Of a stretch of DNA of 6,666 bases, positions 1-6,666 are shown piece by piece. Position 1 is the first letter of the stretch. Each line of letters opens with the position of its first letter. Source of the stretch: a virus. The stretch lies in IMG/VR virus record IMGVR_UViG_3300005664_003236, one strand, 5' to 3'. Below the pieces are notes generated by a model that did not search any database, had not been told where the DNA came from, and saw only the letters and a list, made by a program, of their open reading frames with translations. The translations under genes were made by a program, and so were the position numbers.

Positions 1-122
1 TGATCCCGGTCGGTTCCGCCGCCCGTGTTGTTTGACCTGTTGACACGACTGTCAGTCGGGCGAGGCTTACACTTCGCGGTCTTGCGTTCCTCGAATTGCT
101 TGACGCCCGCCGATCTGGCCCT
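1..122. repeat. Terminal direct repeat, copy 1 (circularisation overlap)
   Basis: Base-for-base identical to 6545-6666 (compared by eye over all 122 nt). Confidence 0.97.
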
Positions 123-275
123 AGAAGTCCAGTCGTCATACCATTTGCCACTATCCACCAGATCGTCGATCTGGCGCTCACGCGGAGTGCGCGTGGCGTC
201 ATACGCCGCCGTCATCGCTATCCGCTCTTCCAGCGTCAGTTTTTTCGGGCGGGAGGCCGAGAAGCCGCCTACCAT
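1..275 (-). CDS. 5' portion of a 104-aa junction-spanning ORF overlapping the rep 3' end; by position an analogue of phiX174 C/K or gokushovirus VP5; function unknown
   Basis: Hand translation of the minus strand from ATG 275-273 gives MVGGFSASRPKKLTLEERIAMTAAYDATRTPRERQIDDLVDSGKWYDDWTSRARSAGVKQFEERKTAKCKPRPTDSRVNRSNNTGGGTDRDQKLRFVPWCDRKS*. Codon 92 (CAG) is split between positions 2-1 and 6544. Composition is balanced (W/Y/D/E/K present) and third positions are mostly G/C, unlike the R/S/P-rich shadow frames. It overlaps rep (199-275) in the +1 frame. The start is uncertain: ATG 275 has no SD. Alternatives are ATG 215 (84 aa, GGAAGAG 9 nt upstream) and ATG 380 or 362 further upstream. Confidence 0.6.
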   Translation of the reverse strand, partial: MVGGFSASRPKKLTLEERIAMTAAYDATRTPRERQIDDLVDSGKWYDDWTSRARSAGVKQFEERKTAKCKPRPTDSRVNRSNNTGGGTDRD

Positions 276-1452
276 CGCCGCAGCACTCGCAAACCGCGAC
301 ACGTCCAAAGTGGACTTCGACGTAACCGGAAAGACGCGCGTCTTTGCCGGTTGCGGCGTCATAGTAGCGCCACCAACCATCTTCGGTGAGGTATCTTCCG
401 AAGCCGGTGGCACGAAGCGCGCTATCCTCTGTGCCATTGAGGCACCAGATACAGCGGAAACGCCACCCACGGGCGGCGATTTCCTGACGGCGCTTTTCTT
501 CGCCTTCGCGCTCACGCTGGCGGAAGTCGATATCGGCTGCGATGGTTTCGAGCGTTTCTTTTTCGTCGTTTTCTTCGACACGAAGTATCTCCATTGCTGG
601 CAAGTCATCGGCGAGCGATGCGAGGAGGGACGAGTATTGCGGCGGGCGACCTTCGCCCCGGAAAACCCGGCGATCATGGATCGCGCGCAAGTGCCAGAGC
701 AGCGCCTTGCGCCATGCTCCTGACGGCACCCAGAAGCCCCCGAAGCCGGGGATTTTAAGTTTAAGAGCCGGAAGCACGTCGCCGTTGGCGTCGAATGCTT
801 CCAGCCTTTTGACCAAGTAGCGCTCGCCTATGGCGGGGCGCTTGCTCATGCGGAACAGGCCAGTGGCGAAGTCTTCTGCCTTCGTTTCCCGCATGGTCCC
901 AGTCGATTTCTCGACCGTGAATTGGTCTTTTAATACATACGACAGCACATAATTCATGCCGCCTTCATCAGCGGTCTGGAAGGTGCAGAAACCCTTGCCC
1001 CAGACGGACCAGTGGAGGCGCTTTTCCGCGCCGCCAGGAACGGTCATTACCGTCTCCAAGTCTGTCACGACCTTGCCGAACCGCTCGACCTTGCCAAGCT
1101 GGCGAAGGTCGATATCGGAGTAAAGCACGAGGTGCCAGTGGCACCGATCGGTGCGCGAGCCTTGCTCGCCCGCCGCCAGAAAGCGGACGGTTGCGCGCGG
1201 CGATTGCTTGTGCGCCGCAGCGCGGATCCGCTTCAAGAAGCGCATAACGTCGCCGTAGTTGAAGAACCGGGCAGCATCCCGGTTTTCTTGCGTGGTTTCG
1301 TCATAGGTCAGCGCCACAATGAGAGTGTGGGGCCATTCGGCCTTTTCCATCATGGCCCGCGCGACCCAACCCTGCCGCCGCACAGCGATGCAGCTATTGC
1401 AGGTCCGACAGGCGAAGGTGTTGCCGTCTTGGGTTATGGGTCTATCACACAT
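199..1452 (-). CDS. VP4: Rolling-circle replication initiator (HUH endonuclease; Microviridae VP4 / phiX174 A-type Rep), 417 aa
   Basis: Track ORF 199..1494 trimmed to ATG 1452-1450, which has AAGGAG (1459-1464) 6 nt upstream; the track start at 1494 is TTG. RCR motifs occur in order. Motif I is LIVALTYD. Motif II is CHWHLVLY (H-W-H codons 1132-1140). Motif III is NYVLSYVLK, with two Tyr four residues apart (codons 949-951 and 937-939), as in phiX174 A. There is an N-terminal Cys cluster C-x12-C-x2-C-x2-C, which I recall being typical of gokushovirus VP4. Confidence 0.9.
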   Translation of the reverse strand: MCDRPITQDGNTFACRTCNSCIAVRRQGWVARAMMEKAEWPHTLIVALTYDETTQENRDAARFFNYGDVMRFLKRIRAAAHKQSPRATVRFLAAGEQGSRTDRCHWHLVLYSDIDLRQLGKVERFGKVVTDLETVMTVPGGAEKRLHWSVWGKGFCTFQTADEGGMNYVLSYVLKDQFTVEKSTGTMRETKAEDFATGLFRMSKRPAIGERYLVKRLEAFDANGDVLPALKLKIPGFGGFWVPSGAWRKALLWHLRAIHDRRVFRGEGRPPQYSSLLASLADDLPAMEILRVEENDEKETLETIAADIDFRQREREGEEKRRQEIAARGWRFRCIWCLNGTEDSALRATGFGRYLTEDGWWRYYDAATGKDARLSGYVEVHFGRVAVCECCGDGRRLLGLPPEKTDAGRADSDDGGV

Positions 1453-1545: not shown

Positions 1546-1695
1546 CTACTTGGCGCGAGTGCGCCCCGAGCCTGTTTTGCGGGCGGGCTTTGCCTTGCCC
1601 TTCCGGTTCCACCATTCATGGTCATCCGGATCCAGAGGCGGGAGGGGCCGAGGAAGGCCCTTTTTCACGATGGGAACACCACGCCGCTTTTTCAC
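1546..1695 (-). CDS. 49-aa polycationic protein (16 K/R, 4 D/E); candidate DNA-binding/packaging microprotein
   Basis: Track ORF 1546..1731 starts at TTG. GTG at 1695-1693 is preceded by GGAGGA (1702-1707) with a 6-nt spacer and overlaps the amidase stop as GTGA. Product: (M)KKRRGVPIVKKGLPRPLPPLDPDDHEWWNRKGKAKPARKTGSGRTRAK. Confidence 0.6.
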   Translation of the reverse strand: MKKRRGVPIVKKGLPRPLPPLDPDDHEWWNRKGKAKPARKTGSGRTRAK

Positions 1696-2150
1696 AGCCA
1701 ATCCTCCGACCGAACCTTGAAGCCCGGACAAAGTTTCGGGGCATAGTCATTATGCCCCGAGACCTTTTCAATCCCAGGTTTGGCAGCGATCCAGCTACGG
1801 ACCGCCTTCCGCTGCGCTTCGGTGAACCACGCGCCGAAGGTGGCCATCACGTCGATCTTGCGGCTCTCGATCATGAGGACGCCGAGCGTCCCAACATTGT
1901 GGCCGATGACGTGCGCGCCGACCATCTCGCATGGCCTGCCGGACTGGATTTGACCGTCCGGCATGACGAGGCAGTGATAGCCGAAGCCATGCTTAAACAC
2001 AGCCCGCCCGCGGCCCGCCTCACGATGCCACCGATTGATCGTGGACCAGACCTGCAAAGGGGTCTGGCCCTCGAAATAGCCGGTTGGAATAGCGGCGCAG
2101 TGAAGAATGACCTCCCTTACGGGGATCTTGTTTTTGCCTTGCAGGATCAT
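1692..2150 (-). CDS. N-acetylmuramoyl-L-alanine amidase, T7-lysozyme / PGRP (Amidase_2) type, 152 aa; presumed endolysin
   Basis: The true start is ATG 2150-2148 (AAGGA at 2159-2163, 8-nt spacer). The 81 upstream residues of track ORF 1692..2393 are R/S-rich shadow overlapping the 107-aa gene. The sequence aligns by eye with T7 lysozyme as I recall it: ILHCAAI vs FVHCSAT, WH..G....GYHCLV.PDG.I..GR vs WH..GW..VGYHFII.RDG.VE.GR, GAHV.GHN vs GSHAKGYN, and GHNDYAPKLCPGF vs HHEVAPKACPSF. Equivalents of the Zn ligands and catalytic residues (T7 H17, Y46, H122, K128, C130) are present as H17, Y58, H133, K139, C141. The H-x5-K-x-C spacing is identical. Confidence 0.9.
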   Translation of the reverse strand: MILQGKNKIPVREVILHCAAIPTGYFEGQTPLQVWSTINRWHREAGRGRAVFKHGFGYHCLVMPDGQIQSGRPCEMVGAHVIGHNVGTLGVLMIESRKIDVMATFGAWFTEAQRKAVRSWIAAKPGIEKVSGHNDYAPKLCPGFKVRSEDWL

Positions 2151-2925: not shown

Positions 2926-4515
2926 TCAGTCCTCCAGATCAAAAATGTCTTCGTCTTCGATGATATCCACGGTTTCAACCGGGGTCGGACCGAAGACGAT
3001 GGGCGTGCGCACCGCGAGCGTGGACGAGACGCGATAGGTGCAGATTTCGCCGACCGTATCGGCGAAGGGGTAGTGATCGAGGCTGGCGGGATACAGAATG
3101 TTTTCCGGAGTCACAGACACCGGGATTTCCAGTTGCCAAATCTGGCTCTTGTTCTCGACCGTGTTGGGATCGACATAACGGTTGAAACCGTAAGTCGAAT
3201 ACGACCGCTTGAGTTGATTGTAGCCCGTGTAGAGAGCAACGGTCGTTTCGTTCGCTTGCAGACAGTCGCCGTCGATTTCCCGGATGGTAACGGCCACCGG
3301 GTCCAGCGCAAGCTGGTCCGAGACGTAATTGTCCAAGCCCCACGGTTCCGACAGGAACGGATGCGGTTGCGCCGCAAGGGTTTCGTCGGGCTTAAGGACG
3401 AGGAACGTCATGATGACGCCGCCCAATTCAGTCTTGGGGATCGGGACGTTGAAGCCGACCGTCACCAGGTTGTCGGTCCGCATCACGTCGTCTTCCACAC
3501 CGCCGGTGTCGGTCGCGCCCTTGATCTGGGTCATGAAGGGCCGCACGACTTCCGCCAGAACGAAGGGCAGCTTCGCGTCATCGACTCGGAGGCCATGTGC
3601 CCAGCGGAGCACGTATTCGGTCCCGAACTGGGGATAGGCCTTGACGATCTGCTCCATCTCCCGGGTGAGCCGGTCCATCGTCTCGGCATTGTAGAAGTCG
3701 ATCAGACTGACCCCTTGGGCGGCGCCGTCGAAGACCGCCGTCAGGTCTGCGGTCGAAGTTGCGCCGCTCCCCTTGGACTTCACGGCGATATCGGTCGCGG
3801 AGGTATTCCGGGCCTTGCCGTCCGACCCGGTCGTAACGATATCCGTCCCGTCCCCATCGCGGAAGGTCGAACCCGAGGGCTGCGAGGGCGTGTTCCGGAA
3901 CAGCATACCCTTCACCGGCAAGGTCATCTGGGGAATTTCCAGATTGACCATCCCGTTGATCCGGTCATCCGGGTCGAGGACGCCATTGAGGCGATCCAGC
4001 ACCGTGTTGCCGATCAGGGCCGGGGTGAGAGCCGTGTTGGAGTGGAGGATCGTCGCCGCCTTCACATATTTCCGCTGACGCAGGAAGTTGATCGCCGCGT
4101 TGTGCGCCAAACGCGGCATTTCGCTCACCTTTTTCACCCCGGCGATGGACTTGGGATGAATGTTGCAGCGGCGCGAGATTTCGCTCTCGTCTTCGAGACC
4201 GAACAGCGGATTGCCCGAGAGCAGCTTCTCCCGGATCACTTCCGTCATCCCGGCATAGGCCGCCTCGGGGTCTTTGATCAGGTCGATGGCCTGAACCGGA
4301 ATGAAGAGCGTGACCGCCTCGAAGGTCGGCGGAGTGATCAACCGACCGGGGATCGGGTCCAACTCGGCGGTGATGTTGACGGTATAGACGCCGCCCTCGA
4401 GCGGACGCACGGCCTCGCACATGACGGGGTAAAACTTGCCGCCACGCATCTTGCCGATGGCGGTATTCCCCGCCGTTCGCGTGGAATACTTGATGGGACC
4501 TTCGGGAAGGTTCAT
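2926..4515 (-). CDS. VP1: Major capsid protein (Microviridae F / VP1 jelly-roll family), 529 aa
   Basis: ATG 4515-4513 with AAGGA (4522-4526) 6 nt upstream. Size is typical of VP1. Blocks recognised by eye against remembered references: GGKFYPVMCEAVRPLEGG (cf. phiX174 F GRLITISTTPVIAGDSF and Chlamydia-phage VP1 G.LIPI..DEVLPGDT), TLFIPVQAI (cf. FTFYVPHRH / YFFVPLRL), and AHNAAINFLRQRKY (cf. RAYNLIWN.YYRD). It lies in the same genome as a microvirus-type Rep. Confidence 0.85.
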   Translation of the reverse strand: MNLPEGPIKYSTRTAGNTAIGKMRGGKFYPVMCEAVRPLEGGVYTVNITAELDPIPGRLITPPTFEAVTLFIPVQAIDLIKDPEAAYAGMTEVIREKLLSGNPLFGLEDESEISRRCNIHPKSIAGVKKVSEMPRLAHNAAINFLRQRKYVKAATILHSNTALTPALIGNTVLDRLNGVLDPDDRINGMVNLEIPQMTLPVKGMLFRNTPSQPSGSTFRDGDGTDIVTTGSDGKARNTSATDIAVKSKGSGATSTADLTAVFDGAAQGVSLIDFYNAETMDRLTREMEQIVKAYPQFGTEYVLRWAHGLRVDDAKLPFVLAEVVRPFMTQIKGATDTGGVEDDVMRTDNLVTVGFNVPIPKTELGGVIMTFLVLKPDETLAAQPHPFLSEPWGLDNYVSDQLALDPVAVTIREIDGDCLQANETTVALYTGYNQLKRSYSTYGFNRYVDPNTVENKSQIWQLEIPVSVTPENILYPASLDHYPFADTVGEICTYRVSSTLAVRTPIVFGPTPVETVDIIEDEDIFDLED

Positions 4516-5679: not shown

Positions 5680-5867
5680 CAACGCACCATCTGTTTAACG
5701 GTCGCAATCCGCTTGGCGACCTCGTCGTCCGTCATATCGAAGAGGACCTTGACCAGATCGACCGCCACGGTGAGATCGGTCAACTCCGGGCGCATGGCGA
5801 GCCAGAAACATGCGTTCTGCATGGTCGCCTTCGACTGCCGCGCGGTCGCGGCCTTGACGCGGGCCAT
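5679..5867 (-). CDS. Hypothetical protein, 62 aa
   Basis: ATG 5867-5865. Third positions are very G/C-rich on hand inspection. It is coupled to both neighbours through TGATG overlaps. Confidence 0.65.
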   Translation of the reverse strand: MARVKAATARQSKATMQNACFWLAMRPELTDLTVAVDLVKVLFDMTDDEVAKRIATVKQMVR

Positions 5868-5995
5868 CAGAAGCCACCCGCCGCGCAGATCGAGCGATGA
5901 ATCAGCGGGGCCTCCGAAAGCAGCCAGAGGCCGAAGGCACCGGCGGCGGGACCACCCACGAAGGTAAGGATGGTCTTGAACAGCGTGGATTTCAT
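5867..5995 (-). CDS. 42-aa single-pass membrane micro-ORF (first gene of the operon); function unknown, holin-like role possible
   Basis: Not in the ORF track. Hand translation gives MKSTLFKTILTFVGGPAAGAFGLWLLSEAPLIHRSICAAGGF*. GGAG (6005-6008) lies 9 nt upstream of ATG 5995-5993. There is a hydrophobic stretch of ~21 residues (LFKTILTFVGGPAAGAFGLWLL). Third positions are mostly G/C, and the stop overlaps the next start (TGATG). Confidence 0.6.
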   Translation of the reverse strand: MKSTLFKTILTFVGGPAAGAFGLWLLSEAPLIHRSICAAGGF

Positions 5996-6028
5996 GCGAT
6001 TTTTCTCCGAACAGGTTACAGTGGTTCG

Positions 6029-6057
6029 ACTATGACAAAAATCGCCTACTCCGTAAA
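6029..6057 (-). promoter_or_regulatory. Weak sigma70-like promoter candidate for the gene train
   Basis: On the coding strand: TTTACG (6057-6052), a 17-nt spacer, then CATAGT (6034-6029), about 35 nt upstream of the first ATG in the AT-richer part of the non-coding region. This is a pattern match only. A perfect TTGACA at 6189-6184 has no acceptable -10 at 16-18 nt. Confidence 0.2.
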
Positions 6058-6096
6058 GTGTCTATCACCACTCTTTCTCCAAGATTTTGCGAGGGC

Positions 6097-6125
6097 GGAC
6101 AGGGCTTGTGCCCGTCCCTATTTTT
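6097..6125 (+). terminator. Intrinsic-terminator-like hairpin plus T5, oriented on the NON-coding (plus) strand
   Basis: ggac(a)gggc (6097-6105) pairs with gcccgtcc (6110-6117): 8 bp with one bulged A and loop ttgt. It is followed by cta + ttttt (6121-6125). On the coding strand the run is an upstream A5, so it would not terminate there. Confidence 0.3.
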
Positions 6126-6172
6126 CCTTCCAGATATAGCGCCAATTTCTTGGCTTTTTCCGACAATCCAGC

Positions 6173-6206: not shown

Positions 6207-6248
6207 GACACAAGAGAGGGGGCGCTTTCGCGCCCCCTCTCTTGTGTC
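6207..6248. repeat. Perfect 19-bp inverted repeat (hairpin) with 4-nt loop; GAAA loop and GCGAAAGC cap on the coding/packaged strand
   Basis: 6207-6225 (gacacaagagagggggcgc) pairs base for base with 6230-6248 (gcgccccctctcttgtgtc). The loop 6226-6229 is tttc (GAAA on the coding strand). There is no U-tract on either side. The structure is certain; its function is unknown. Confidence 0.9.
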
Positions 6249-6463: not shown

Positions 6464-6504
6464 GGTAAGCGTTTTTTTGCTATGAAGCTGCAAGCAGCTT
6501 GGAG

Positions 6505-6666
6505 CTAGGATTTGCGGTCACACCACGGAACGAAACGGAGTTTCTGATCCCGGTCGGTTCCGCCGCCCGTGTTGTTTGACCTGTTGACACGACTGTCAGT
6601 CGGGCGAGGCTTACACTTCGCGGTCTTGCGTTCCTCGAATTGCTTGACGCCCGCCGATCTGGCCCT
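6505..6666 (-). CDS. 3' portion of the same junction-spanning ORF (unique part 6505-6544; 6545-6666 duplicates 1-122)
   Basis: The minus-strand frame entering at 6666 reads RARSAGVKQFEERKTAKCKPRPTDSRVNRSNNTGGGTDRDQKLRFVPWCDRKS and stops at TAG (6507-6505). There is no start codon in this copy, which explains its absence from the ORF track. Confidence 0.6.
   Translation of the reverse strand, partial: RARSAGVKQFEERKTAKCKPRPTDSRVNRSNNTGGGTDRDQKLRFVPWCDRKS
6545..6666. repeat. Terminal direct repeat, copy 2 (circularisation overlap)
   Basis: Base-for-base identical to 1-122. The repeat stops exactly at the window end. Confidence 0.97.

Follow-up and report, generated by a model that had tools for sequence, protein, structure and literature searches.

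In the stretch of viral DNA analysed here (the window; 6,666 nucleotides, IMG/VR record IMGVR_UViG_3300005664_003236), it is highly probable, judging the gene model and the status of the homopolymer jointly, that the end of the replication initiator gene rep is shared by two genuinely overlapping genes and that the run of six adenines (A6) at which protein-like sequence seems to pass from one frame into the other is incidental. This gene model fixes the annotation of the open reading frame (ORF) that follows rep: it is the 3' portion of an overprinted gene for 206 aa that starts 383 nt before the rep end. By sequence comparison, the overprinted gene is a homologue of the gene for Gp10 of Rhodobacter phage Ebor; the family has already been described, and the window contributes a new member that carries an insert.

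The genome and its rep gene

The window is a circular microvirus genome of 6,544 nt plus 122 nt of terminal redundancy, which takes the form of an exact direct repeat at both ends (1-122 = 6545-6666) and is an assembly overlap. Because of this repeat, an ORF that leaves the window at position 1 resumes at position 6544, where the reading frame of interest here continues until it stops at 6507-6505. The genome has a G+C content of 61% and its minus strand holds all long genes. The product of the major capsid protein (MCP) gene (2926-4515, minus strand) is 50% identical, over its full length, to the MCP of Ebor, Rep is 48% identical to Ebor Gp9, and the order of the genes is as in Ebor, an Amidase_2 lysis gene included. 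Judged by these two identities and by gene order, the genome that hosts the overprinted gene is that of a tainavirus-like microvirus. The lysis gene (1692-2150, minus strand, upstream of rep; PF01510) encodes a peptidoglycan hydrolase and is the counterpart of Ebor Gp7. Between its hydrolase and rep genes, Ebor encodes a putative methylase (Gp8), whereas in the window this interval contains only a 61-aa ORF (1546-1731).

Neither a megablast of the whole genome against phage records nor an Rfam scan of the window returned a match. The 28-mer XerCD dif/attP motif of Ebor was also sought in the window; the best candidate agrees at only 18 of 28 positions and lies within the capsid gene, and thus no homologue of the Ebor motif was found. 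A perfect inverted repeat of 19 bp that encloses a 4-nt loop (GACACAAGAGAGGGGGCGC / GCGCCCCCTCTCTTGTGTC) is present at 6207-6248, in the middle of a stretch of about 510 nt that lacks a convincing gene and extends from the stop codon of the Gp10-like gene (6505) to a small ORF (ATG at 5995). This element, which matches neither Rfam nor the Ebor dif/attP motif, could be an origin, attachment or terminator element. Directly past the Gp10-like stop codon is a 7-bp inverted repeat (AAGCTGC TT GCAGCTT; 6485-6500, minus strand), after which comes an A7 (6472-6478) that, besides the A6, is the sole run of at least six adenines in the genome.

The rep gene (199-1452, minus strand; ATG at 1452-1450, TGA at 201-199) encodes a rolling-circle replication initiator of 417 aa that matches Pfam PF23343 (E=1e-11) and PHROG 942 (E=1e-32). 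We found 234 Rep homologues, the best 120 of which are 371-456 aa long, so that none of those 120 comes near the 496 aa that a fusion of the two frames would have. The 513-aa phiX174 A protein, to which an earlier note on this DNA had likened the length of such a fusion, is by the same lengths an unsuitable yardstick. That note had also called for a comparison of rep 3' ends in related genomes, and in this comparison the Reps of relatives prove to be unfused and to end 3-25 aa past an aligned FP/IP motif, as the Rep of the window does. A sister strain, represented by three contigs from other runs (L046-L048) that are about 88-90% identical to the window, encodes a Rep without the first Cys of a CxxC pair (RFRCIWC -> RFLSLWC), a pair that is invariant in 23 aligned Reps.

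The start of the Gp10-like gene

The Gp10-like gene occupies the +1 frame relative to rep. Its 5' part (1-581, minus strand) extends from a GTG at 581-579 and overlaps rep over positions 199-581 (383 nt), and its 3' end (6505-6544, minus strand), past the circular junction, comprises the last 12 codons and a TAG at 6507-6505. Since 6545-6666 repeats 1-122, the 3' end can be viewed contiguously at 6505-6666. From the GTG to the TAG the gene encodes 206 aa, with 383 nt in rep and 238 nt beyond it. A Shine-Dalgarno (SD) sequence, GGAG (589-592, minus strand), lies 7 nt 5' of the GTG within the rep codons for M-E-I-L, and the SD and start are thereby embedded in the codons for a conserved D-x-E-I/V-L motif of Rep. 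The rep codons at which the gene starts are exactly homologous to those used in Ebor (CGT GTC in the window and GAT GTC in Ebor). Translation of the Gp10-like protein would begin independently at an internal, SD-led GTG on the mRNA of rep.

These observations bear on two claims of the earlier note, which had placed a switch of coding frame exactly at the A6 and had offered, as one of three readings, a genuine overlapping gene with its start at the ATG at 275-273. The switch does not hold up, given that the +1 frame is open from position 827, that its SD-led GTG lies about 340 nt upstream of the A6, and that a family profile aligns from this GTG onward. The overlapping gene was correctly foreseen in kind but not in extent, as its start is the GTG at 581 inside rep, at a place where all 25 lineages described below have a start codon. 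The ATG at 273-275 (minus strand) is an internal, in-frame codon for Met103; as the note had remarked, no GGAG-like sequence precedes it, and it is replaced by AGA in sister strains L046-L048.

Conservation of the overlapping frame across relatives

To place the Gp10-like gene among its relatives, we gathered prophages, viral contigs and contigs encoding close Rep or Gp10-like proteins, giving 25 lineages made up of the window, Ebor, 13 Rhodobacteraceae/Paracoccaceae prophages and 10 metagenomic lineages. In 25/25 lineages, an open +1 frame spans 299-419 nt of rep and a further 52-337 nt past the rep stop codon, and a canonical start codon is found at the homologous place (ATG in 17, GTG in three and TTG in five). 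Each of these starts is preceded at a distance of 7-9 nt by an SD sequence of the form GGAG(A/G/T) or GGA(C/A)A, and in all 25 lineages both elements are embedded in the rep codons for D-x-E-I/V-L. The encoded proteins of the 25 lineages share an N-terminus of the form M-A/S-K/R-K-x-K-K and a C-terminus of the form TCKxRPxD..GGGSRPFVPWCDRK, and the pI of the 21 proteins for which it was computed is 10.5-12.

The window protein conforms to this pattern at both ends. Its N-terminus reads (V/M)SKKTTKKK... compared to MSKKSK... in Ebor Gp10, its C-terminal motif reads ...CKPRPTD..GGGTDRDQKLRFVPWCDRKS compared to ...CKMRPMD..GGGSRPFVPWCKKV, and the two proteins end in ...RFVPWCDRKS and ...RPFVPWCKKV, respectively. 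The C-terminal motif alone matches Ebor Gp10 in a pairwise comparison with E=3e-4, and six residues of the family are invariant (K172, P175, G189, R192, P200 and W201). A profile built from 20 relatives, with the window excluded, matches a single one of 108 open segments of the window, and it does so with E=3e-8 over the full length of the gene, from GTG to stop. As a single query, the 206-aa protein found no match in a set of 5.8 billion proteins or, at E<=1, in Pfam and PHROGs; a profile search of the family in the protein set recovered only seven proteins, most of which are shortened gene calls.

We also counted stop codons in 21 genomes. In the +1 frame, none of the 2,510 overlap codons is a stop, compared to 179 of 6,253 codons upstream (2.9 per 100), while the +2 frame has 95 stops in 2,510 codons of the overlap and 240 in 6,232 codons upstream (3.8 per 100 in both). 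This test is to some extent circular, since an open frame is what delimited the region. When rep codons are shuffled synonymously in single genomes, the +1 frame stays open in 7-84% of trials. Openness is therefore persuasive only as a joint pattern over the related genomes, for which the product of the single-genome values is ~1e-12, with the qualification that the genomes are not independent of one another.

In public records, gene calls for this family cover only parts of 79-92 aa that do not overlap rep (P0121, P0125, P0126 and P0127; loci L004, L036, L042 and L043), which begin at internal ATG or TTG codons that are not homologous to one another. In many contigs, such as L029 and L032-L035, the gene is not called at all.

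Selection and codon usage

One member of the sister strain, L046, was used to count substitutions relative to the window. In the rep-only region, there are 57 synonymous and 19 non-synonymous differences in the rep frame. Past the rep stop codon, the +1 frame has 8 synonymous and 0 non-synonymous differences and every other frame has 0 and 7, and between the A6 and the rep stop the +1 frame has 2 and 1 compared to 0 and 3 in the rep frame. Judging by these counts, the 13-codon tail of Rep that follows the A6 (TDAGRADSDDGGV, then TGA at 201-199) evolves freely, and the +1 frame from the A6 onward is the part visibly under purifying selection. Codon usage in the region past the rep stop was also examined, where the +1 frame has a G+C content at third positions (GC3) of 0.68 and the other frames have 0.55, compared to 0.68-0.80 in the other genes of the genome.

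From the GTG to the A6, by comparison, the +1 frame has 11 synonymous and 42 non-synonymous differences and the rep frame 13 and 38. In this stretch the window-sister pair thus shows no selective signal for either frame, and as a consequence the argument for +1 coding here is drawn from freedom from stops, the conserved start and composition. Nucleotide identity to the sister strain is 77% both from the GTG to the A6 and over the whole overlap, 90% in the rep-only region and 97% after rep. Hardly any change separates the two strains in the SD, the GTG and the first ~30 codons, with GGAG 100% conserved in flanks that differ. The part of the window that diverges most from L046-L048, indels included, is the segment at 246-430 in the middle of the overlap, which may be diversifying or recombinant.

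Constraint on Rep ends near LGLPPE, and in the Gp10-like protein the constrained C-terminal part starts at KKLTLEER. The impression of a frame switch that the earlier note had recorded at the A6 hence reflects a real boundary of constraint between the end of Rep and the C-terminal part of the Gp10-like protein, and not a change of frame within one product.

A further ORF, in the +2 frame, was considered and is probably not a gene. It encodes 88 aa from an ATG at 202 and crosses the junction to 6480 on the minus strand. Its GC3 is 0.55, it has 0 synonymous and 7 non-synonymous differences relative to the sister strain, and its length among relatives varies erratically between 13 and 178 codons. 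The overlap of its start with the rep stop codon (ATGA) resembles an arrangement for translational coupling.

The A6 run and the readings it invites

The A6 (240-245, minus strand) encodes Lys113-Lys114 (AAA AAA) of the Gp10-like protein and forms part of Glu-Lys-Thr, (G)AA AAA A(CT), in rep. The earlier note described the site accurately: the plus-strand T6 at 240-245 is an A6 on the coding strand, the rep frame reads CCC GAA AAA ACT and ends 13 codons on, translation after removal of one A joins 404 and 92 codons into a 496-aa product, and addition of one A brings an immediate stop (AAC TGA). The product of the latter change would have 405 aa. Both Lys codons at the site are AAA since the rep frame requires GAA AAA. 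More broadly, AAA serves as the Lys codon at 8 of 15 positions in the overlap and at 13 of 57 in the other genes, where it is the minor codon; its preference in the overlap follows from the use of GAA by rep. AAAAAA matches the window three times, at two loci, compared to 3.1 +/- 2.4 times expected from dinucleotide shuffles, and is hence not in excess. In the sister strain, the site reads CCAAGGAAACTG, with AAGGAAA in place of the homopolymer (Arg-Lys in the +1 frame and Lys-Glu in rep), and the two-frame layout is kept, with Rep ending in ...SKETDAGRTHSDDGGV* and the +1 frame reading ...VPRKLTLEERIAM.... The A6 itself is present in three further independent assemblies of this virus (JGI samples 3300020036, 3300020050 and 3300020043) that are 99.98-100% identical to the window. 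Among 21 lineages inspected for runs near the rep end, A5 occurs only in Ebor, at the homologous PKKL, and in L026 and L021, while L032 has AAG AAG; three other lineages that bear the insert described below (those of P0125-P0127) have no A run at the site. The A6 is best described as two adjacent Lys codons of a Lys-rich protein, that is, as a coincidence of dual coding and not a recoding signal.

We weighed three other accounts of this region against overlapping genes with an incidental A6. If the true genome had A5, a single 496-aa rep would have been split by a homopolymer error in sequencing or assembly, and the continuous ORF obtained by deleting one A is the sole point in favour of this reading. 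We give it next to no credence, since the A6 recurs in the contigs of three other JGI samples, the sister strain keeps the frame relation and the Rep tail (TDAGRTHSDDGGV*) of the window around a sequence that is not homopolymeric, the conserved C-terminal motif is in the +1 frame relative to rep in 25/25 lineages, and the best 120 of the 234 Rep homologues, at 371-456 aa, end 3-25 aa past the FP/IP motif; the assembly error proposed in the earlier note is in this way refuted. An independent gene of 84-104 aa that starts at the ATG at 275 or at an ATG at 215, with the openness of the +1 frame further upstream a non-coding by-product of high G+C content and Rep composition, would agree with public gene callers, which give only 79-92 aa (P0121, P0125-P0127), with purifying selection that is clearly demonstrable only downstream of the A6, and with synonymous shuffles that often leave the +1 frame of a single genome open (fractions of 0.07-0.84). 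We nonetheless regard such a gene as improbable: the sister strain has AGA in place of the ATG at 275, the internal starts that gene callers select (ATG, TTG, ATG) fall in differing alignment columns, and most relatives have just 17-50 codons past the rep stop, which could not accommodate the conserved protein. A start and a GGAG at one homologous position, followed by the MAKKxKK motif, in 25/25 lineages, together with 0 stops in 2,510 overlap codons, also speak against it, as does Ebor Gp10, which was detected in virions and is annotated as a protein of 145 aa with only 30 of them beyond rep.

Slippage at the A6 could yield a 496-aa fusion of Rep to the C-terminal part of the Gp10-like protein beside the 417-aa Rep, either by a +1 shift of tRNA-Lys on AAA_A or by transcriptional loss of one A, and because the +1 frame is open, any slippage would indeed give rise to a fusion. 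In the +1 frame, tRNA-Lys could re-pair without a mismatch (GAA AAA ACU -> AAA), the codon that follows, ACU, is a minor Thr codon (11/87), and the 100 nt downstream, a G+C-rich dual-coding region with predicted hairpins, fold somewhat better than shuffled sequences (z = -2.0, with 6/200 shuffles as good). Other features make slippage very unlikely in our estimation. The run is not conserved, given AAGGAAA in a sister strain that is 88-90% identical, the lack of an A run at the site in three other lineages with the insert domain, and A5 runs near the rep end in only Ebor, L026 and L021 among 21 lineages. The frequency of A6 in the window is that of chance, no SD-like stimulator lies just upstream, no Rep of fused length is found among the best 120 of 234 homologues, the downstream frame is served by a conserved, SD-led start of its own, and Ebor virions contained Gp10 but no detected Rep (PMC11980548). 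With the run absent from the nearest and most other relatives, programmed slippage at the A6, as put forward in the earlier note to account for a short and a fused Rep, is unsupported by the sequences compared. The note had also named observations that would refute its proposal, namely a confirmed A6, independent SD-led starts in relatives and no fused Rep. These are essentially what we found, with the difference that the relatives have their starts well upstream, within rep. Efficient transcriptional slippage in bacteria is documented typically at runs of 8-9 or more, and the A6 is shorter. There is a slighter chance still that, in this lineage, occasional +1 slippage at the A6 appends the insert domain and the capsid-directed FVPWC C-terminus to Rep (496 aa), an idea that draws on just the open frame and a re-pairable AAA_A before the minor ACU codon. 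If true, a minor Rep-Gp10 fusion could connect the interior of the capsid with the 5' end of the ssDNA, to which Rep is bound, and so couple rolling-circle replication to packaging.

Properties of the Gp10-like protein

With two overlapping genes as the preferred reading, the product of the overprinted gene is a 206-aa protein with a pI of 10.7 (42 K+R and 18 D+E), and its N-terminal 113 residues have a pI of 11.9. The protein can be divided into three parts: a disordered, very basic N-terminal half that overprints rep, an insert that is confined to one subclade, and the conserved CKxRPxD...GGG...FVPWC C-terminus. The insert of ~56 aa (residues 115-170, LTLEERIAMTAAYDATRTPRERQIDDLVDSGKWYDDWTSRARSAGVKQFEERKTAK; 72-239, minus strand) is not found in Ebor or most relatives. 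Its carriers, namely the window, the sister strain L046-L048, L036-38, L042 and L043, share the pattern TPRxREIDxxVxxGxW[FY]DDWxxRAR...FExRK, which has no family match, and identity for the insert-bearing proteins P0125, P0126 and P0127 and their contigs is 62-73% in full-length alignment. An AF2 model of the whole protein, built from a seven-sequence alignment, is of low confidence and mostly disordered (pLDDT 52), with predicted helices at residues 117-143 and 160-168 (pLDDT ~70-78).

By analogy with phiX174 J and gokushovirus VP8, we think it somewhat likely that the Gp10-like protein is packaged together with the ssDNA, whose charge it would neutralise. Protein J of phiX174 and the Gp10-like protein are alike in that the N-terminal part is basic and the C-terminal end aromatic, and we presume, again by analogy with J, that the aromatic and Cys-containing C-terminus of the latter may dock on the inner capsid wall.

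Comparison with known systems

The analysis reveals nothing new about recoding mechanisms. Public gene calls for the Gp10-like family are systematically shortened to 79-92 aa, or miss the gene, and members can be recognised by a start and SD within the codons for Rep D-x-E-I/V-L, by a MAKKxKK N-terminus and by a CKxRPxD...GGSRPFVPWC C-terminus. One subclade of the family carries the conserved ~56-aa insert.

The closest known counterpart is Ebor Gp10. LC-MS/MS of Ebor virions identified it as the only protein present in significant amounts besides the capsid and pilot proteins, with Rep undetected (PMC11980548). It has a pI of 11.3, is conserved in the 'Tainavirinae', and was proposed to be analogous to the charge-neutralising DNA-binding proteins VP8 and J, and the authors of that study likened its position (and size) to those of phiX174 B (PMC11980548). 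The Ebor record PP754850 annotates Gp10 as 'putative charge-mitigating virion protein / bifunctional structural protein', and its gene (g10, 5719-6156), which is read in the +1 frame, shares 347 nt with the end of rep and runs on for 91 nt past it. Like g10, the window gene is read in the +1 frame from the homologous start codon in the 3' third of rep and passes the rep stop, and the protein it encodes is likewise very basic, with an MSKK-type N-terminus and the CKxRPxD..GGG..FVPWC motif. Unlike Ebor Gp10, which has 145 aa and an ATG start, the window protein has 206 aa and a GTG start, and overall identity between the two is only 20%; the greater length is due to the ~56-aa insert and a four-residue insertion before FVPWC. 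Moreover, Ebor Gp10 has been shown in the virion, whereas the window protein is known here from its gene.

The Gp10-like protein resembles phiX174 J and gokushovirus VP8 in being highly basic and in the role proposed for it by analogy, namely entry into the capsid along with the ssDNA and neutralisation of its charge, but these proteins have about 25-40 aa whereas that of the window is five times longer and overprints rep instead of being encoded by a separate small gene. Membership in the J or VP8 families was considered and set aside, given 206 aa and no Pfam or PHROG match at E<=1, which makes the analogy one of function. Like phiX174 gene B, which is nested in gene A, the window gene is overprinted in a replication gene in an alternative frame; however, B is fully nested whereas the window gene extends past rep, and the two proteins have no Pfam similarity. 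Ebor Gp10 is also retained in the virion, whereas phiX174 B is removed. Finally, the 3' part of the rep region gives rise to more than one protein, as in phiX174 A/A*, but A* is the product of in-frame internal initiation, while the second product in the window is read in another frame and is unrelated in sequence to Rep.
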